DNA of 35,473 bases from a bacterium (GTDB taxonomy: Bacteria; Bacteroidota; Bacteroidia; Bacteroidales; UBA932): assembly GCA_004561775.1 (NCBI GenBank), contig SFUD01000001.1, positions 1-35,473 on the forward strand, given 5' to 3'. Positions within the stretch are counted from its first letter, which is position 1, and the number at the start of each line of letters is the position of its first letter. The position numbers were made by a program, and so were the translations under genes. Under the pieces are notes generated by a model, which was not told where the DNA came from, ran no database searches, and saw only the letters and a program-made list of their open reading frames with translations. Below, in pieces: positions 1-35,473 of this stretch.

Positions 1-99
1 TACTTATAGTGTGCGCCCGGTCCTTGCTCTTGAATGGGATGCTTAAATCCTTAACCTTTCACCCCTGCGCCTTGAAAGCGCAGGGGATATAAAACCAAT
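1..99. repeat. Terminal direct repeat identical to 35375-35473. It is an assembly overlap of a circular molecule, not a biological LTR.
   Basis: Compared base by base: both copies read tacttatagtgtgcgcccggtcc...gcgcaggggatataaaaccaat. The repeat holds the last 46 nt (including the TAA at 44-46) of the 34020-35420 CDS plus the downstream hairpin. Confidence 0.95.
62..86 (+). promoter_or_regulatory. Hairpin downstream of the DGR variable repeat (duplicate copy of 35436-35460).
   Basis: cccctgcgc / cttgaaa / gcgcagggg: perfect 9-bp GC-rich stem and a 7-nt loop ending in GAAA. No T-run follows. Confidence 0.7.
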
Positions 100-107
100 C
101 GCATCAT

Positions 108-536
108 ATGGCAGATACAAGAGGTCTCGCAGTCAATAGAGACATATACAACTTTGAGACAATGATGTACCGGGTGTATGACAACATTCCGGCAAAGCAC
201 AAGCATACCCTGTCTGCATTGGCACTCCAATCCACCCTTGATATGAGGCATTACTCCAATCTGGGGTGCAAGATGTACAAGGCGTGCATAGCCGAAAAGG
301 CAAGGCTATTCTCGCTCTCTCTTGGGTATTGTGAGGACTTGCAGGATAGTCTCAATCACCTGTACGATATGGACCTGTTGTCCGGCAAGACCAAATGCAC
401 CCTTGATGCGGCACTTGATGGGATAAGAGGGCAACTCTCAAGATTGGTCAAATCCTTTGAGAAACAATTAAGCAGAGGGGCGGAACACCGGGAGGAAACA
501 ATCGGTGGAGACTCAATATATCAAGAGGAGGGATAA
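108..536 (+). CDS. avd: DGR accessory variability determinant (Avd)-like protein.
   Basis: 142 aa, sitting between the VR-bearing gene and TR/RT as in Bordetella phage BPP-1. The segment YRVYDNIPAKHKHTLSALALQ resembles the Avd / 23S-rRNA-IVS four-helix-bundle family motif (..IP.KH..). The C-terminus is basic. Confidence 0.7.
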   Translation: MADTRGLAVNRDIYNFETMMYRVYDNIPAKHKHTLSALALQSTLDMRHYSNLGCKMYKACIAEKARLFSLSLGYCEDLQDSLNHLYDMDLLSGKTKCTLDAALDGIRGQLSRLVKSFEKQLSRGAEHREETIGGDSIYQEEG

Positions 537-541
537 CTGCA

Positions 542-1939
542 ATGATTTGTAGTCGCATCAACATATCCCATTTACTTCCTTGTGCGGAGTATTCGGCCAA
601 CAACTCGTTCAATTACAATGGCAACAATGGCAAATTGAACAATAACAATAAGAATAATACTTATAGTGTGCGCCCGGTCCTTGAACTTGGTAGATTGCAG
701 ACCTATTTTGAGGATTGCCCATTTCCATTAAGTGAGATATATGACATATACAGGATAACGAAGAAACACAAGGCCTCAAAGCCATCGCACCTGTTGTTTC
801 AACTATACTATCCGCAGTACCTGCGGAGTCTCTGGCAGGACATAAACAACTGCCATTACAGGCCATCATCATCCATTGCCTTTATAATCACGAAACCCAA
901 GGTGAGAGAGGTGATTGCCGCAGATTTCCGGGATAGGGTTGTGCAGACTCTCCTTGTGCAGGAGATGCTGCCATCTCTGGAGGAATACGAACACCCACAC
1001 TCCTACTCTTGCCGAAAGGGCAAGGGTTGCCTTGCCGCAGTCCAACGCCTGCAGGAACTCAATGACCAATACTATGATGGTGTGGTGTGCTTTGTGGACA
1101 TTGCCAATCACTTTATGTCCATAGATACGGAACTCTGGACACCCAGAGTCCTGCAGTTCATTGATGAACACTACGACAAGGGAGAGGACCGCAAGGCTAT
1201 CCTCAAGTACCTTGCCAATACCATATACACCCATAGGCCGCAGGACAATTGTGTCCGTAAATCCCCTATGTGGATGTGGGAGATGTTGCCTCCGCAGAAA
1301 TCCCTGTTCCACTCCGAAAAGGGTGTCCCCATCGGCAATGTGACATCTCAAACCCTCTCCAACTTTGTGACCACAGGATACCTGCGGCTCATAGAGGCGG
1401 CAGGGTTTGACTTTGCGTTCTACACCGATGATACAGGGATGTTTTGCCACAGGGAGGATAAGGACCGCCTCCTGTCCTATCTGCCCATCTTTGAGGACTA
1501 CCTCAAGAGGGAATGCGGCCTCAAGATGCATCCCAATAAGAGATACATACAGGACACTCGCAAGGGTTTCAATGCCTTTGGTTTTCGTATCAAGGACCGC
1601 AACATCACTCCATCCAAGAGGCTTGTGTACAATTTCAAGAGGTTAGTGGGATACCTCCTCCTTTTGGCGGAGGAGGATGTGCGCAACCTGTACCTGTATA
1701 GAGAACAGGCGCAGGCGAGGCTCAATTCCTACCTCGGCCTGTTGAGGTGGTCGCATTCGTACAACCTCCGTAAGGCCCAGATGATACGCCTGCAGGCCTC
1801 CAAATGGGCGCAGATATTCCGTTTCCCTGTAGGATACGAAAAGGTGGAGATAAAGGCCTCCAAGAGCAAGATGGAACACTACAGGAGGCTCAACAAGGTA
1901 AGATATAGGCAGCAACTATCAATATCTAATGCAATATGA
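542..1939 (+). CDS. DGR reverse transcriptase. The start is uncertain: ATG 542 would make TR part of the ORF, and TTG 695 is the only other in-frame start before the RT domain.
   Basis: RT motifs were read in the translation: KPKVREVIAADFRDRVVQ, SYSCRKGKG, FVDIANHFMSID, PIGNVTSQTLSNF (the DGR-type [I/L]GxxxSQ signature), FYTDD (1421-1432) and GFNAFGFRI. Confidence 0.9.
   Translation: MICSRINISHLLPCAEYSANNSFNYNGNNGKLNNNNKNNTYSVRPVLELGRLQTYFEDCPFPLSEIYDIYRITKKHKASKPSHLLFQLYYPQYLRSLWQDINNCHYRPSSSIAFIITKPKVREVIAADFRDRVVQTLLVQEMLPSLEEYEHPHSYSCRKGKGCLAAVQRLQELNDQYYDGVVCFVDIANHFMSIDTELWTPRVLQFIDEHYDKGEDRKAILKYLANTIYTHRPQDNCVRKSPMWMWEMLPPQKSLFHSEKGVPIGNVTSQTLSNFVTTGYLRLIEAAGFDFAFYTDDTGMFCHREDKDRLLSYLPIFEDYLKRECGLKMHPNKRYIQDTRKGFNAFGFRIKDRNITPSKRLVYNFKRLVGYLLLLAEEDVRNLYLYREQAQARLNSYLGLLRWSHSYNLRKAQMIRLQASKWAQIFRFPVGYEKVEIKASKSKMEHYRRLNKVRYRQQLSISNAI
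579..689 (+). repeat. DGR template repeat (TR).
   Basis: 111 nt aligning without gaps to 35296-35406. There are 21 mismatches, all at TR adenines. In the VR frame it reads as AAC/AAT-rich codons (CAEYSANNSFNYNGNNGKLNNNNKNNTYSVRPVLEL). Confidence 0.93.
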
Positions 1940-2718: not shown

Positions 2719-3148
2719 GTATGCCAATTTCACCCTTGCCGAGTTCATTAAGAGCGACACCGCTGCCCAGAAAGGGATAGACAACGCCCCGGACTTTGAT
2801 GAGGTGGCCCACCTTGATGAGTTGATAGGGACTATCCTGCAACCCCTCCGGGAGGCCTGGGGCAAACCCCTCATTATCTCATCCGGCTACAGGTGTAAGG
2901 AACTTAACAAGGCCGTAGGCGGTGCGGAGACATCTGCCCACCAATACGGATATGCTGCAGATGTGCAGGTCACCCGGTCCAAGGACTTTGATGCCTTTAT
3001 AGCCTTTGCCGAGGATTGGCTCAAGACCAATGATGTACCTTTTGACCAGAGCATCCGTGAGTCCTCCAAGACTGCCTATTGGTGGCACATAGGCCTGCGG
3101 AACTCCAAGGGATTGCAGAGGAGGCAATTCAAGGCTATCAATGTATAA
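2711..3148 (+). CDS. Endolysin, peptidase M15 (zinc D-Ala-D-Ala carboxypeptidase / L-alanyl-D-glutamate peptidase type).
   Basis: Motifs SSGYRCKELNKAVGGAETSAHQYGYAADV match the H..D...H metal-site region of M15 phage lysins. Confidence 0.8.
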   Translation: MSKYANFTLAEFIKSDTAAQKGIDNAPDFDEVAHLDELIGTILQPLREAWGKPLIISSGYRCKELNKAVGGAETSAHQYGYAADVQVTRSKDFDAFIAFAEDWLKTNDVPFDQSIRESSKTAYWWHIGLRNSKGLQRRQFKAINV

Positions 3149-3768: not shown

Positions 3769-3819
3769 CATTGTCGGAATGACACAAGAGATAATACAAA
3801 CCCTTAATTCAAAAGAAAA

Positions 3820-4185: not shown

Positions 4186-4192
4186 CAATACC

Positions 4193-4210
4193 GGGGAGGG
4201 CAACCTCCCC
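4193..4210 (+). terminator. GGGGAGG / GCAA / CCTCCCC hairpin (member of a 5-copy family).
   Basis: 7-bp GC stem with a GNRA loop. No clear T-run. Confidence 0.45.
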
Positions 4211-4269
4211 ACCAAATATCTTTCAGTCAGTTATACTCAATTATTAACCCTTAATCAATCTAAATCATT

Positions 4270-4671
4270 ATGAAACAGGTAATCCTTACCAACACCAATG
4301 GTCAGTACAACGACCTCCTCACCAACAATCTCTACTTTGCTTACTGCAATGCCATCAACACCAAGGCGATTGAGGAGGCAAAACGCAATGCCAACCTTAT
4401 CATTGTATGCCCCTGTGACCGCAAGGAGAATGAGTTTCTCTATTTCTTTGACCTCCGAGACACCACTAACGAGAGTACACGGAGACAGGGAACAACCACC
4501 ACCGAGGCCCTCAAGTTTTATGAGTCGGAGGTGTGCGACCTGTCAAGCAGAATTGGCTATCTCTCCGAGGGGGCAGATATATCCGAGGCTGAATTTGACA
4601 TCCTTGATAAGGTGGGACAACACCTTGACAAGGCCGCAGATGCCCTCTATGATGTCTGGGCCAAGAGGTAA
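4270..4671 (+). CDS. Hypothetical protein (133 aa).
   Basis: Leader motif at 4247-4260 and a hairpin at 4679-4699 after the stop. No recognisable domain. Confidence 0.6.
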   Translation: MKQVILTNTNGQYNDLLTNNLYFAYCNAINTKAIEEAKRNANLIIVCPCDRKENEFLYFFDLRDTTNESTRRQGTTTTEALKFYESEVCDLSSRIGYLSEGADISEAEFDILDKVGQHLDKAADALYDVWAKR

Positions 4672-4678
4672 TCATTCC

Positions 4679-4702
4679 GGGGAGGGTATCCCCCTCCCCT
4701 TT
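4679..4702 (+). terminator. GGGGAGGG / tatcc / CCCTCCCC hairpin plus TTT.
   Basis: Perfect 8-bp stem, 8 nt after the stop codon. Confidence 0.5.
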
Positions 4703-5789: not shown

Positions 5790-5795
5790 CTAACC

Positions 5796-5816
5796 GGGGA
5801 GGATGACCTCCTCCCC
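5796..5816 (+). terminator. GGGGAGGA / tgacc / TCCTCCCC hairpin.
   Basis: 8-bp stem. No T-run. Confidence 0.4.
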
Positions 5817-6632: not shown

Positions 6633-6845
6633 TGCAATTGTTGGTCCTATGTTGGTCAATAAATACGCAAATCTGCACCTCGCATATCTCTACGGGAGGT
6701 GCAGCAATTCTAACCTATGTTATAACCAAATCCCCCTTGGACACATTCCAGATGCAAGAAATGCAGAAATAGGCTCTCTGCATAGGTTAAAAATAACCCA
6801 TATATTTGTATATTTGCTTGCAAATGTTGGTCAATCCGACCAACA
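6633..6845. promoter_or_regulatory. attP-like region with repeated TGTTGGTC sites (putative integrase arm-type sites) and inverted repeats.
   Basis: TGTTGGTC at 6639-6646, 6650-6657 and 6825-6832, and inverted as GACCAACA at 6838-6845. 9-bp inverted repeat taacctatg (6711-6719) / cataggtta (6781-6789). Hairpin 6673-6681 / 6696-6704. Confidence 0.5.
6801..6816 (+). promoter_or_regulatory. Tandem -7 boxes TATATTTG TATATTTG upstream of int.
   Basis: Two back-to-back perfect TAnnTTTG matches, ending 49 nt before ATG 6865. Confidence 0.5.
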
Positions 6846-6864
6846 ATTATAAGCAATACACATT

Positions 6865-8148
6865 ATGCCGACTTTCAAACCTGTAGTATCCGCCCATCAA
6901 AAGAGGTCCGATGGGTCATACAATATTAAAATCCGCATCACGCATAAAAGAGTATCCCGGTGGATACCTACCAACCTCAACGCCTATGCCTATGACCTCA
7001 CCCGGTCTCTCAACCTCAAGAACAAGGACCTTGAATGGAAATGCAATGACCTTATACGGCAGATGAGGGCCGCACTCGCAGATGTCCCCACCTTTGTCTT
7101 GGAGGAACAGGACATTGATTGGGTGGTGCAGCGCATCAAAGATAAGATGTCCGGCAAGACATTCAACCTTGATTTCTTTGTGTTCGCAGAGGAGTATATT
7201 ACCGCAACCAAGATACCTGCGACACAAAGCAACTACCGCACCGCCCTTAACTCATTCAAGGAATATCTGGGCAAGGAGTCTATTGACATCAATGACATCA
7301 CACACGCAATGGTGCTTGGTTTCAAGGAATGGGTAGATACAACACCCAAGAGGTCAAGGGTTGGGAGAAAGAGACAGGAGGCAAAGGATGACACAACGGC
7401 CAAGAGGCCAAAGTTGCCCGGTGGCGGTAACTCCTCCATCCAGATAATGAAACTTGCACATATCTACAACAAGGCAAAGGATAAGTACAATGATGAGGAT
7501 GAGGACCTCTACCTCATACCTCGCAATCCTTTCAAGAATGTACCTCTATCCTTTCCTCCTGCCCAGACAGGCCAAAAAGCATTGGGGCAGGAATTGATGC
7601 AGCGCATCATCTCTGCGGATGCCACGGGTTCGGACAGGGTAGCACTTGACACCTTTATCCTGTCCTTTGCTATGATGGGGATGAACTTGTGCGACCTGTA
7701 TGCCTCCGCTCCTCCCAAGGGTGGAGTGTTGAGGTATAACAGGAGCAAGACACGGAACAGGAGGGCAGACCACGCAGAGATGGAGGTGATAGTCCCGGAG
7801 GAGGTGGCTGCGATATGTAGCCGATTATGCTCTGCCGATGGGCAGTATTGGCTATCCGACCTCCATAAGAGGTGTCCCTCTGCGGAGAATGTTACCGCCT
7901 ACATCAATAAACTCCTCAAGCATTGGGCCGACAAGGAGGGACTACCTCCGTTCACTTTCTATGCCGCACGGAAAACTTGGGCAACCCTCGCTCGCAAGGC
8001 AGGTGTGGAAAAGGCCACCATTGATGAGTGCCTTGTACATATCGGAGACCTCAAGATGGCCGACATCTATATTGAAAAGGACTATACAATTATGAACGAT
8101 GCCAACAGGATAGTGATGGCCCTCTTTGATTGGCCTATGATGGAATAA
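6865..8148 (+). CDS. int: Tyrosine-recombinase family integrase (Bacteroidota phage/CTn type with an N-terminal arm-binding domain).
   Basis: 427 aa. The N-terminus KPVVSAHQKRSDGSYNIKIRITHKRVSRWIPTNL is typical of the arm DNA-binding domain. The C-terminus has FYAARKTWATLA ... LVHIGDLKMADIYIEKDY (R...H...Y region). Confidence 0.8.
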   Translation: MPTFKPVVSAHQKRSDGSYNIKIRITHKRVSRWIPTNLNAYAYDLTRSLNLKNKDLEWKCNDLIRQMRAALADVPTFVLEEQDIDWVVQRIKDKMSGKTFNLDFFVFAEEYITATKIPATQSNYRTALNSFKEYLGKESIDINDITHAMVLGFKEWVDTTPKRSRVGRKRQEAKDDTTAKRPKLPGGGNSSIQIMKLAHIYNKAKDKYNDEDEDLYLIPRNPFKNVPLSFPPAQTGQKALGQELMQRIISADATGSDRVALDTFILSFAMMGMNLCDLYASAPPKGGVLRYNRSKTRNRRADHAEMEVIVPEEVAAICSRLCSADGQYWLSDLHKRCPSAENVTAYINKLLKHWADKEGLPPFTFYAARKTWATLARKAGVEKATIDECLVHIGDLKMADIYIEKDYTIMNDANRIVMALFDWPMME

Positions 8149-8324: not shown

Positions 8325-8741
8325 CTACTTGGACAGGTGGCTATGAGGGTAAATGCCCCCTTTAGAGATGTATCCCTCTCCCTCCTTAGTGGTGAGCCTG
8401 TCTACCAATTGGGTGAGCCTATCAATGGACTGCGCCATTGAGGTATACATCTTGAGTGTCTCCGCAGGGATGAATACGCCCTCTTGCACCTTGGGTTGAG
8501 GCCGTTCCTCTGCCTGTTCCGGCAGGAGTGTTCCGACTCCTGTGATGAGATAGTTAGCATCAAAGCCGAACAGGTCAGCATAAGCCTTTGCCACCCTGCC
8601 GCCAATAGGCCTCCCAGATAGTTGATTGCTTACTGCCTGTTGGCTGCATCCCATCATTTCTGCGACCTCCGCCATTGTCAAATTGTGGTCCTCAAAGTAT
8701 GATTTTATCTGCCTTGAGATGATTTTGTGTATATCCGCCAT
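8325..8741 (-). CDS. XRE-family HTH repressor (CI-like).
   Basis: The only convincing minus-strand gene. HTH LTMAEVAEMMGCSQQAVSNQLSG. Divergent from the early operon. Confidence 0.8.
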   Translation of the reverse strand: MADIHKIISRQIKSYFEDHNLTMAEVAEMMGCSQQAVSNQLSGRPIGGRVAKAYADLFGFDANYLITGVGTLLPEQAEERPQPKVQEGVFIPAETLKMYTSMAQSIDRLTQLVDRLTTKEGEGYISKGGIYPHSHLSK

Positions 8742-9742: not shown

Positions 9743-10408
9743 ATGATATACCAGAAACTCGCCAAGATACAGGCCGCAGTCAAGGGTCTCACCAAGGACA
9801 CCAAGGCCTATTCTTACAAATATGTTGATGGCAACAAATGCCTTGCATCAATCCGCCCATTGATGGTGGAATATGGCCTCCTCCTTATGCCGGAGGTCCG
9901 GGAGATTTCCACCAAGGAGGTCACCTACAAGGTTTGGAATGACAAGGCCAAGAGTCTTGTGGATAAGACCGAGGTGTTGGTCACCATCAAGATGCAGATG
10001 ACTTGGGTAGACTCCGAGGATGGAGAGATGCTACGCCAAGAGTGGGCAGGTACAGGTATGAATGACTTTGACAAGGGGTTTGGCTCTGCCCTTACCTATG
10101 GTGAGAGGTATTACCTCCTCAAGTTTTTCCATATACCTACCGACAAGGATGATGTGGACTTTCTTGCCACTACAAGAGATGCTGCCCTTGAACAGGCGCA
10201 GGACAAAAAAGGCTGCGTATTCCGCCCTCTGGATGAGGAGTCCTATTGGAAAATAGTGAGAGCCTATGTTGAGGGTCGCAAGGCCAAGAGTGGCAATGAT
10301 TACAGGACCGACTACCAAGCCATCACCAATGCCGGACAGGCAGAGATGGCCAAGTTTGACCACGATGTTGAAAATGTACGCCTCGCAATGTCTGCAGGCG
10401 CAAGATAA
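9743..10408 (+). CDS. ERF-family single-strand annealing protein (recombinase).
   Basis: KIQAAVKGLTKDTKAYSYKYVDGNKCLASIRPLMVEYGL and GFGSALTYGERYYLLKFFHIPTDKDDVD match ERF hallmarks. ATG 9743 is preferred over the TTG at 9734. Confidence 0.8.
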   Translation: MIYQKLAKIQAAVKGLTKDTKAYSYKYVDGNKCLASIRPLMVEYGLLLMPEVREISTKEVTYKVWNDKAKSLVDKTEVLVTIKMQMTWVDSEDGEMLRQEWAGTGMNDFDKGFGSALTYGERYYLLKFFHIPTDKDDVDFLATTRDAALEQAQDKKGCVFRPLDEESYWKIVRAYVEGRKAKSGNDYRTDYQAITNAGQAEMAKFDHDVENVRLAMSAGAR

Positions 10409-29168: not shown

Positions 29169-29174
29169 TTGACT

Positions 29175-29198
29175 GGGGAGGGTAACCCCCTCCCCTTT
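29175..29198 (+). terminator. GGGGAGGG / taacc / CCCTCCCC hairpin plus TTT.
   Basis: Perfect 8-bp stem, 7 nt after the capsid stop. Confidence 0.55.
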
Positions 29199-34019: not shown

Positions 34020-35420
34020 ATGGCAAATCTATTTTTGTACAAGAATAAGGCAGGGTACAACTCTGCAACTGACCGACCTGCGCAGCAGAGTTCGGTGTCC
34101 TATGATGGGCAGGAGACCATTGTAGATGGCAAGAATGTCATTCTGCCTTTCAAACCCGCTAACGCCCAGATGGGTGATATGGTGGTATATGATACCATTG
34201 ACAACTGCCGCAAGATACTCAAGTGGAAAACCTACCACGCAGGTACTTTTGACTCCTCAAGGTATATTATGGGTAAGGCCCTGTACTTTGGGGCGCAGAA
34301 TGGCAAGGGCATCTGGGCGGGTATTGAGAATGCAGTAAGTGCATCCAAGATGTGGGCAGAGAAATGCTATTTCCGCCTTACAGGCATCAATGTGTCTGCC
34401 GCAGGCTCATTCACTTTCAAGACCTACTACTCTTGGGCATCTCATCCAGACAATGTTGTCTCTTGGGATGCAGGCGCAACCCTCGCATCTATTGTTGCCA
34501 CCATCAACGGCCTTGGCCTGTCTGCCTCCTATTTCAAGGCTGCGGTCCTCGCGGATGGTACAGGTATCGGTATCTGGGTGAACTACCCTACTACTGATAA
34601 TGTCTCCGCAATATTCTCCATCACCGCAGGTGGGGAGGGTATCAATGTGGAGTATATGAACAAGTACAACGGACAGGATGTGGTATGGCAATATGTTACC
34701 ACCTCTACCATCATTCCGGGCAGGACTCCTGCCAAGAATGTACTGCGCAGGAATGGCCTGTCTACATATTGGGGAGGCGGCCACTTTGCCAAGTTTGTGG
34801 ACTATTATGGTACAAATGGCAAGGCGGAATACGCCCCGGAGACATCTAATGACCCTATGAACAGGGCCACATTCAACGCCCTTGCCGAGTCCTTGGTTGA
34901 GGCAGAAAAGGCCCTCTATGACAAGTACAATGGTTCATATGAGGAGTATATTGAGGGCGCAATGGTCCTCTGCGATACCGCAAGGGATATTATGGGTGTC
35001 TCATACGATGATGCCTCCTACCAGACTGCCCTACTTGGACAGGTGATGACCAAGGACTATGACAACAATGTCATCCCGGCATTCCCTGCCGCCTACTACG
35101 CCCATATCTATGGAGTCAATGCCGCAGTACCTACAGGCTTTGAGACAGGCAAGTGGGGACTCCCTACCACCTACCAGATGGTGAAACTCATTGAGTTGGT
35201 AGGCCTCAACGCCAATAACAAAACGGATTTCAACAGGGCCATTGACAAGTTCAATGCTGCAGGAAATTTCTATGGTAGCGGATACTATTTCTGGACTTGT
35301 GCGGAGTATTCGGCCGGCGGCTCGTTCAATTACGGTGGCGACTATGGCTTTTTGTACATTGACCCTAAGTATGGTACTTATAGTGTGCGCCCGGTCCTTG
35401 CTCTTGAATGGGATGCTTAA
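34020..35420 (+). CDS. DGR target protein: receptor-binding or adhesin protein with a C-terminal DUF1566/C-type-lectin-fold variable domain.
   Basis: 466 aa, immediately after the tail fiber. The C-terminus GKWGLPTTYQMVKLIEL...YYFWTCAEYSAGGSFNYGGDYGFLYIDPKYGTYSVRPVLALEW follows the DUF1566 pattern (W.LP...EL..L ... YWS....... VR.V). The VR occupies the last 125 nt. Confidence 0.85.
   Translation: MANLFLYKNKAGYNSATDRPAQQSSVSYDGQETIVDGKNVILPFKPANAQMGDMVVYDTIDNCRKILKWKTYHAGTFDSSRYIMGKALYFGAQNGKGIWAGIENAVSASKMWAEKCYFRLTGINVSAAGSFTFKTYYSWASHPDNVVSWDAGATLASIVATINGLGLSASYFKAAVLADGTGIGIWVNYPTTDNVSAIFSITAGGEGINVEYMNKYNGQDVVWQYVTTSTIIPGRTPAKNVLRRNGLSTYWGGGHFAKFVDYYGTNGKAEYAPETSNDPMNRATFNALAESLVEAEKALYDKYNGSYEEYIEGAMVLCDTARDIMGVSYDDASYQTALLGQVMTKDYDNNVIPAFPAAYYAHIYGVNAAVPTGFETGKWGLPTTYQMVKLIELVGLNANNKTDFNRAIDKFNAAGNFYGSGYYFWTCAEYSAGGSFNYGGDYGFLYIDPKYGTYSVRPVLALEWDA
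35296..35406 (+). repeat. DGR variable repeat (VR).
   Basis: Ungapped 111-nt alignment to TR 579-689 with 90 identities. All 21 differences correspond to A in TR. The invariant GC-rich 3-prime end gtgcgcccggtcc is IMH-like. Confidence 0.93.
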
Positions 35421-35473
35421 ATCCTTAACCTTTCACCCCTGCGCCTTGAAAGCGCAGGGGATATAAAACCAAT
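35375..35473. repeat. Second copy of the terminal overlap (= 1-99).
   Basis: Exact 99-nt identity with the window start. Confidence 0.95.
35436..35460 (+). promoter_or_regulatory. Hairpin 30 nt downstream of VR (DGR target-site structural element candidate).
   Basis: cccctgcgc / cttgaaa / gcgcagggg. No U-tract, and the essential lysis genes lie downstream in the same orientation. Confidence 0.6.

Follow-up and report, generated by a model that had tools for sequence, protein, structure and literature searches.

The window analysed here, a 35,473-nt stretch of DNA (positions 1 to 35,473 of contig SFUD01000001.1, assembly GCA_004561775.1), carries the parts of a candidate diversity-generating retroelement (DGR) arranged across the junction of a circular assembly. 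Because its first and last 99 nt are 100% identical, the junction is real and the unique genome measures 35374 bp; the window is thus an overlap-closed circular assembly. Read across this junction, a target gene holding the variable repeat (VR) at its 3' end is followed by a GC-rich hairpin, by avd, by the template repeat (TR) and by the open reading frame (ORF) of a reverse transcriptase (RT) (Table 1). The junction is not an artefact, because linear contigs of more than 12 relatives carry the target, avd and RT genes in this order without a break, among them L001 and ten loci (L073-L082) that encode a 142-aa Avd protein identical to that of the window (L-numbers denote relatives' loci from public metagenome assemblies). 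The gene order proposed in the original prediction, which had been made from the DNA letters without database searches, is therefore borne out with every part in place.

Table 1 Features of the candidate DGR and of the circular junction in the window
Feature	Coordinates	Strand	Description or basis
Terminal direct repeat	1..99 = 35375-35473	.	Assembly overlap; circular or circularly permuted genome
avd (accessory variability determinant), 142 aa	108..536	+	Four-helix bundle; fold and homologues' Pfam matches
RT ORF, 465 aa	542..1939	+	RVT_1, phrog_1423 and bRT matches
TR	579..689	+	37 adenines in 111 nt; codons 13-49 of the RT ORF
IGNVTSQ, DGR RT signature [I/V/L]GxxxSQ	1331..1351	+	Sequence; bRT alignment
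YTDD catalytic box	1421..1432	+	Sequence; invariant in family
DGR target gene, 466 aa	34020..35420	+	Last virion-module gene; C-terminal ~65 aa DUF1566/Lcl_C-like, with VR
VR	35296..35406	+	81% identical to TR; mismatches only at TR adenines
IMH-like 3' constant VR segment GTGTGCGCCCGGTCCTTGCTCTTG	35383..35406	+	Differs from TR copy only in GCT (VR) vs GAA (TR)
GC hairpin CCCCTGCGC / GCGCAGGGG	35436..35460 (same sequence at 62-86)	+	9-bp stem, 7-nt loop

The longest repeat in the window pairs the TR with the VR, both of which lie where they had been predicted, the latter covering the last ~40 codons of the target ORF. Computed realignment upheld the adenine-specific mismatch pattern in full: all 21 mismatches among the 111 positions (10 A>G, 8 A>T and 3 A>C) fall at TR adenines, an outcome with a hypergeometric P of 5.5e-13 given the base composition of the TR. 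When the comparison was restricted to the non-adenine positions of TR 579-683, all 70 matched at 35296; no other site in the window exceeds 35/70, so the window holds a single VR. Two of the 21 mismatches, at positions 684-685 / 35401-35402, are always AA in the TR and always CT in the VR in all relatives, a constancy from which we read them as a fixed difference between the segment that marks the VR for initiation of mutagenic homing (IMH) and its TR counterpart (IMH*), not as mutagenesis; this would leave 19 mutagenic changes. The mutagenised VR core spans 35316-35374 in this genome, and the population-variable columns that face TR adenines span 35308-35382. In the 81-nt TR core (591-671), the 34 adenines are distributed over codon positions 1/2/3 of the target frame as 16/17/1 and include those of 12 AAY codons, for a template capacity of ~3e20 DNA variants and ~1e20 protein variants. 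Only two TR codons, one AAA and one AAG, can be converted to stops.

The RT ORF matched both Pfam RVT_1 (E = 3.7e-12) and the PHROG reverse transcriptase family phrog_1423 (E = 1.5e-50), and its best relative in the PDB was bRT of Bordetella phage BPP-1 (8ub7_A, E = 3.7e-13, 24% identity), followed by retron-type and group II RTs at ~1e-5. DGR RTs carry the motif [I/V/L]GxxxSQ in place of QGxxxSP (PMC7826257), and the DGR-specific signature noticed in the original prediction proved to be of this kind. Furthermore, R122 and I264 of the window RT align with R74 and I181 of bRT, two residues shown to promote adenine mutagenesis (PMC7826257). A HMMER search of 1.84 billion cluster representatives returned 3677 RT relatives; among the 143 near-full-length sequences in the top 150, [I/L]GxxxSQ occurred in 124, and the catalytic box was YVDD in 81, FVDD in 16 and YTDD in 14. 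The YTDD box, initially remarked upon as less usual than YMDD or YVDD, is present as reported, and we dropped it as an oddity: it is a trait of this RT lineage, unchanged in four relatives whose RTs are as little as 51% identical. The RT ORF is unbroken in 11/11 close relatives, and its differences from the L006 homologue are biased towards third codon positions (89/56/202 at positions 1/2/3), a sign of purifying selection.

The RT could in principle be of retron or group II intron type, with the 111-nt repeat arising from an ordinary partial gene duplication, and the top NCBIfam model is indeed a group II RT/maturase (TIGR04416). Its 87 bits, however, lie far below the cut-off of 300, as do the 18 bits of the retron RT model below its cut-off of 235, no Rfam family reaches its gathering score in the window, and the protein has IGxxxSQ rather than QGxxxSP, with bRT as its best PDB match. 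A duplication is, moreover, refuted by the pattern of change, with every mismatch at an adenine and population variation confined to adenine codons (see below). We thus give this alternative practically no weight and assign the RT, on its sequence, to the DGR RTs.

As for the accessory protein, the window's own 142-aa sequence matched Pfam bAvd only below threshold (E = 0.048), and searches of PDB chains with the single sequence and with a 7-sequence profile returned chance-level matches only. Homologues that are 60-70% identical match PF05635 (best E = 7e-7), and 7/7 aligned members weakly match bAvd. An AlphaFold2 (AF2) model (mean predicted local distance difference test, pLDDT, 85) consists of four helices (residues 7-26, 35-55, 61-87 and 93-131), for which the top Foldseek matches were 2gsc, 2rld (PF05635), 8ub7_B and 4dwl (bAvd), with probability 1.00 and target-normalised template modelling (TM) scores of 0.79-0.89. 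The four-helix-bundle and Avd similarity asked of this candidate is thus present in the model, and on the strength of the predicted fold and of the homologues' Pfam matches we identify the product as Avd.

Because the checks on the RT, on Avd and on adenine specificity all favoured a DGR, we consider it very likely that the window contains a genuine, structurally intact element with the layout target-avd-TR-RT, carried by a temperate phage probably of Bacteroidales. In the scheme of Wu et al. 2018 (PMC5758913) this layout is architecture B1, in which the target precedes avd-TR-RT; 88% of DGRs belong to either family A or family B of that scheme. By analogy with BPP-1, a complex of RT and Avd would bind a transcript that runs from the 3' end of avd through the TR into the RT gene; the RT would then copy the TR into complementary DNA (cDNA), faithfully except for misincorporation opposite adenines, and the VR that closes the target gene would be exchanged for this cDNA, with the GC-rich IMH segment marking the recipient. 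Up to ~20 codons, including the 12 AAY codons, could in this way be rewritten in the DUF1566/Lcl_C-like C-terminal domain of the 466-aa virion protein. What we infer is that an RNA intermediate and an RT-Avd complex exist, what the IMH segment and the hairpin do, and that the target binds a receptor or switches tropism.

The likeness to the mtd-avd-TR-brt cassette of BPP-1 asserted in the original prediction holds for gene order and components, and extends to the VR, which in both closes the last gene of the tail module and precedes a GC hairpin, to a putative IMH/IMH* distinction, to an RT homologous to bRT with the R74 and I181 equivalents and to an Avd whose fold matches 4dwl and 8ub7. It does not hold for the position of the template: whereas the TR of BPP-1 is followed by a ~140-nt intergenic spacer, that of the window lies inside the RT ORF. 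Further differences are the catalytic box (YMDD in BPP-1), the class of VR (Mtd-type CLec1 in BPP-1 and DUF1566/CLec2 here) and the hairpin, which here has a 7-nt loop and starts 29 nt past the end of TR homology; the phages themselves are unrelated.

In the window, the TR does not sit in an intergenic spacer. The RT ORF opens at ATG 542, 5 nt past the avd stop codon, contains the whole TR and reads it in the frame that the VR uses in the target, and similarity to other RTs begins only at about residue 60 (nt ~719). The same arrangement was found in L001, L006 and L007, where the ATG lies ≤18 nt past the avd stop or overlaps it, so that the frame has stayed open in four lineages, the most distant with 51% identity in the RT. 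No in-frame ATG occurs between the TR and the conserved RT core in the window, L001, L006 or L007; all four share an in-frame TTG (695 in the window), which could be where the RT in fact starts. An Asn-rich N-terminus was present in 70/143 related RT gene calls. Of 50 other DGR loci examined that have a similar TR, 11 showed an open frame shared by TR and RT, close to chance expectation, and we therefore did not retain a TR within the ORF as general evidence of translation. In the present lineage, translation of the TR may nonetheless add an Asn-rich stretch to the N-terminus of the RT. Because the TR lies inside the RT ORF, any equivalent of the spacer RNA must overlap the RT coding sequence. 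In a consensus RNA fold of the region from the avd 3' end through the TR to the RT 5' end in the four lineages, the avd 3' end (AAGAGGAGGGATAACTG) pairs with the TR 3' flank (CCTTGAACTTG); the columns are almost all invariant, and no informative covariation for this pairing was found across the four lineages.

We next turned to natural variation, comparing 16 near-identical genomes with both repeats (the window and 15 others, from public metagenomes), which together provide 17 VRs. The TR was the same as that of the window in 9/15 of the other genomes, while 16 distinct sequences were found among the 17 VRs. Mismatches between each VR and its own TR numbered 234 at adenines and 17 elsewhere, and 9 of the latter 17 were contributed by a single aberrant genome. 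The VR base facing a TR adenine was A 316, T 129, G 122 and C 28 times. Among target homologues at ≥93% identity, all positions that vary within residues 430-455 correspond to TR codons that contain adenine, and the adenine-free codons of this stretch are invariant. Consistently, the 90%-identity cluster of the closest target homologue (94% identical) comprises 1789 distinct sequences, and that of the closest Avd homologue (99% identical) 183 sequences. Because the VRs differ almost only at TR adenines while the TR is mostly invariant, these data indicate strongly, if indirectly, that the element is diversifying its target in nature, as judged across genomes. The suggestion that the element is intact and probably active thus stands as regards its ORFs and motifs, and finds its support for activity in the VR hypervariation of the population rather than in this individual copy.

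Two positions depart from this variability. In the target homologues at ≥93% identity, E429 and K450 are fixed though their codons carry adenines, which indicates selection on both residues. The codon of Lys450 is the stop-capable AAG (TR 650-652); its two adenines notwithstanding, it is invariant in the target sequences examined at ≥83% identity, and this invariance implies strong selection to keep Lys450. The other stop-capable codon, AAA (TR 632-634, window 35349-35351), varies at all three positions in nature.

Downstream of the mutagenised core, the IMH-like segment is invariant in every cassette-bearing relative; the function of IMH is known from the BPP-1 literature as summarised in PMC5758913, and the role of the segment here is proposed by extension from it. 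The GC hairpin pointed out in the original prediction is present as described, starting 16 nt past the target stop codon, and folds at -15.1 kcal/mol (z = -2.5). It occurs 3' of the VR, none being found 3' of the TR, and it is kept in L001, L003, L004 and L006, with a different stem (GTGCGGC/GCCGCAC) in L007. Nothing marks it as DGR-specific, however: similar hairpins also follow four unrelated genes, and a DGR-specific cruciform, which we considered, could not be told apart from the ordinary gene-end hairpins of this genome. These belong to a GC-rich family (GGGGAGGG...CCTCCCC) found directly after the stop codons of unrelated genes at 4188-4213, 4674-4699, 5791-5816 and 29170-29195. A motif CCTTAA(T/C)C likewise recurs near gene ends and starts, for example at 3800, 5372, 5834 and 35423, and both the hairpin family and the motif are probably terminators or phage regulatory signals.

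Four tests bear on the identity of the target protein, for which the AF2 model has a pLDDT of 90. Searched at full length, the target had no Pfam match; its C-terminal 106 aa reached Lcl_C at E = 0.17, and PF07603 was matched by 5/31 members of the target family (best E = 4.3e-4). A single-sequence search of PDB chains gave chance-level matches only, and a profile of the 31-sequence family retrieved the C-terminal domain of Legionella Lcl (8q4e_A, E = 5.5e-4, residues 403-461). Foldseek searches with the model returned 8q4e_A (probability 0.93) and phage DUF1566 proteins (probability 0.96-1.0), as well as tail-fibre proteins. The evidence that the C-terminus is DUF1566/Lcl_C-like, of the CLec2 / category d class of VRs, is thus weak but consistent across four tests; for VRs of this class, DUF1566 matches are in general weak and mixed (PMC5758913).

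Upstream of the target lies a virion module with a portal gene, a gene for a DUF6712 protein and, directly before the target, one for a fibre-like 590-aa protein, while small transmembrane-like ORFs (putative holins) and an M15 endolysin follow the DGR on its 3' side. The cassette does therefore sit between fibre-like and probable lysis genes, much as had been proposed. From this position and from the predicted fold, the target is most likely a receptor-binding tip, and tropism switching would follow by analogy. An active DGR could instead diversify a virion-surface adhesin that binds something else (mucus, glycans or other cells, for instance), with no switch of host tropism. The case for receptor binding is indeed built from position and fold, a separate fibre-like protein is encoded immediately upstream, some relatives have a second, short target of 163 aa that is DUF1566-only, and work on gut-phage DGRs with two targets does not settle which ligand is bound (PMC10743442). 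On the other hand, the target closes the virion module right after the fibre-like gene, as with mtd in BPP-1, its Foldseek matches include tail-fibre and DUF1566 phage proteins, and phage DUF1566/CLec targets are usually tail-associated (PMC10743442). We hence regard a different ligand as rather unlikely, although worth keeping in mind, and retain a receptor-binding tip as the preferred role.

Other known systems share particular features with the element. With the Legionella pneumophila DGR and CLec2 / category d VRs (PMC5758913) it has in common the type of VR (W-T-C-A-E-Y-S ... N-rich ... K ... S-V-R-P-V-L) and the weakness of the DUF1566/Lcl_C matches; the Legionella target, in contrast, is a cellular lipoprotein on an integrative element, whereas the window target is a phage virion protein with a 400-aa N-terminal part that lacks a family match. 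The gut and Bacteroidales context is shared with Bacteroides phages Bacuni_F1/F2/F4, with Hankyphage and with the well-documented virus-encoded DGR clades of Roux et al. 2021, in which gut phages dominate (PMC8144416), and phage DGRs that target tail proteins are predominant in gut phages (PMC8144416). Within 50,697 deposited phage genomes, the RTs closest to that of the window reach 31-36% identity and belong to Bacteroides uniformis phages F1, F2 and F4 and to contigs of human faecal phages; the window phage itself has no DNA similarity, and its target no homologue, in the same 50,697 genomes. Finally, L001 and L067 resemble tentaclin phages nd4 and nd12 (PMC10743442) in having, besides the first, a short target of C-lectin type that the same TR serves. 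The window differs in having one VR only, and the second target of its relatives is a 163-aa DUF1566-only protein where the tentaclin phages have an N-terminal C-lec plus an immunoglobulin-like (Ig) 'tentaclin' (PMC10743442).

Several observations weigh against the reading of the window as an intact DGR that is active and switches tropism. Of the three products submitted to profile searches, the RT was recognised (RVT_1), but Avd and the target fall below Pfam thresholds on their own sequences. The evidence of activity comes from comparisons between genomes and not from this genome copy, and relatives repeatedly lose the cassette, so that activity is not obligatory in the lineage. The receptor-binding role is argued from gene position and fold, Foldseek matches of the N-terminal part of the target are weak (TM about 0.15), and the hairpin is without any DGR-specific feature. 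Lastly, the window RT carries Asp at codon 352 (1595-1597), where 11/11 close relatives have Gly (G352D), as its sole private substitution.

This substitution could also mean that the cassette here is a recently silenced relic whose TR/VR pattern records past activity, the element having been inactivated by, for example, G352D or want of expression. Such a reading can draw on the restriction of G352D to the window among 12 genomes, on four independent cassette deletions in relatives, by which loss appears tolerated and frequent, and on L069, in which the TR no longer fits its own VR. Yet all ORFs of the window are intact with conserved catalytic and signature motifs, position 352 lies outside both IGNVTSQ and YTDD, and the TR equals the population consensus with all adenines kept. 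We therefore judge silencing of this copy to be improbable and continue to favour an intact DGR.

The relatives also show that the template itself changes. In L001, the TR (2696-2806) departs from the consensus at 13 positions, of which 12 are adenines. All 13 changes recur in the two L001 VRs (2039-2149 and 6807-6917), which otherwise differ from this TR only at its remaining adenines. Smaller changes of 1-3 TR adenines, shared by the corresponding VRs, were seen in L068, L071 and L073. In L069, the TR (2972-3082) has lost 18 adenines that were not passed to the VR, which shows 23 mismatches at adenines and 4 elsewhere against the consensus TR, and 7 at adenines and 9 elsewhere against its own TR. 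These losses are derived, because outgroups L006 and L007 have the adenine-rich state. As observed in metagenome assemblies, this pattern suggests that the TR was overwritten by an adenine-mutagenised copy, through either self-homing or VR-to-TR gene conversion. Loss of TR adenines, as well as the tuning and loss of DGRs, is predicted by a 2026 theory preprint (10.64898/2026.02.18.706561).

Loss of the whole avd-TR-RT cassette, in the region that corresponds to 35420-35473 plus 100-1940 of the window, has occurred in at least four ways in metagenome-assembled relatives that keep a diversified VR. In L066 (5401-5480), the deletion runs precisely from the avd ATG to the ATG of the next gene, with ATATG microhomology, and in L067 (2145-2200) it begins just past the target stop codon, removing the hairpin and leaving the last ~45 nt of the RT gene. 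L003 (7463-7900) has lost the TR and RT and retained avd, and L004 (7404-7470) is a cassette-less prophage with flanking bacterial genes. On a reading that we put forward tentatively and hold to be somewhat doubtful as a whole, the template of this lineage is not immutable, being overwritten in some genomes and deleted with its cassette in others, and may in addition be translated. If it were true, overwriting and cassette loss would amount to a natural locking-in of favourable receptor-binding residues, far faster than by point mutation.

The second target noted above is found in L001 (6437-6928) and L067 (4042-4533), where it has its own VR and a hairpin (GGGGAGGGG/CCCTCCCC). The corresponding slot of the window (4270-4699) is occupied instead by an unrelated 133-aa gene, with a hairpin of similar type after it.

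With respect to the phage itself, the 50,697 deposited phage genomes yielded no match to 28 kb of its DNA by megablast, nor to the target and a 1072-aa protein by tblastn, and an RT-core scan of viral contigs (IMG/VR) returned no relative. By these sequence comparisons, the phage appears to represent a lineage absent from the 50,697 deposited genomes. An index of public assemblies has its exact Avd protein in 584 blocks. Thousands of DGRs with this layout and VR class are already catalogued, above all from gut phages. What is new here is therefore not a principle but a complete DGR in an undeposited and very widespread gut phage, which offers a natural experiment: in many near-identical genomes the TR stays constant while the VR differs from one to the next, and other relatives show TR erosion, deletion of the cassette or an additional target. 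Such variants provide a route to studying how DGRs are kept up, tuned and lost in the wild, and to testing theory on the loss of TR adenines.

An Rfam scan of the window found no family at gathering score, and a tRNA scan found nothing. Distant homologues of the target occur in metagenome-assembled genomes (MAGs) of Bacteroidales, in agreement with the gut Bacteroidota phage envisaged at the outset, and the host of this temperate phage is probably a member of Bacteroidales. The temperate-phage genes of the window, named from their L001 homologues, are a tyrosine integrase of 427 aa (6865-8148), a divergently transcribed helix-turn-helix (HTH) repressor-like gene on the minus strand (8325-8741) and an ERF-type recombinase (9743-10408). 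L004, L078 and L079 resemble integrated copies on longer contigs.

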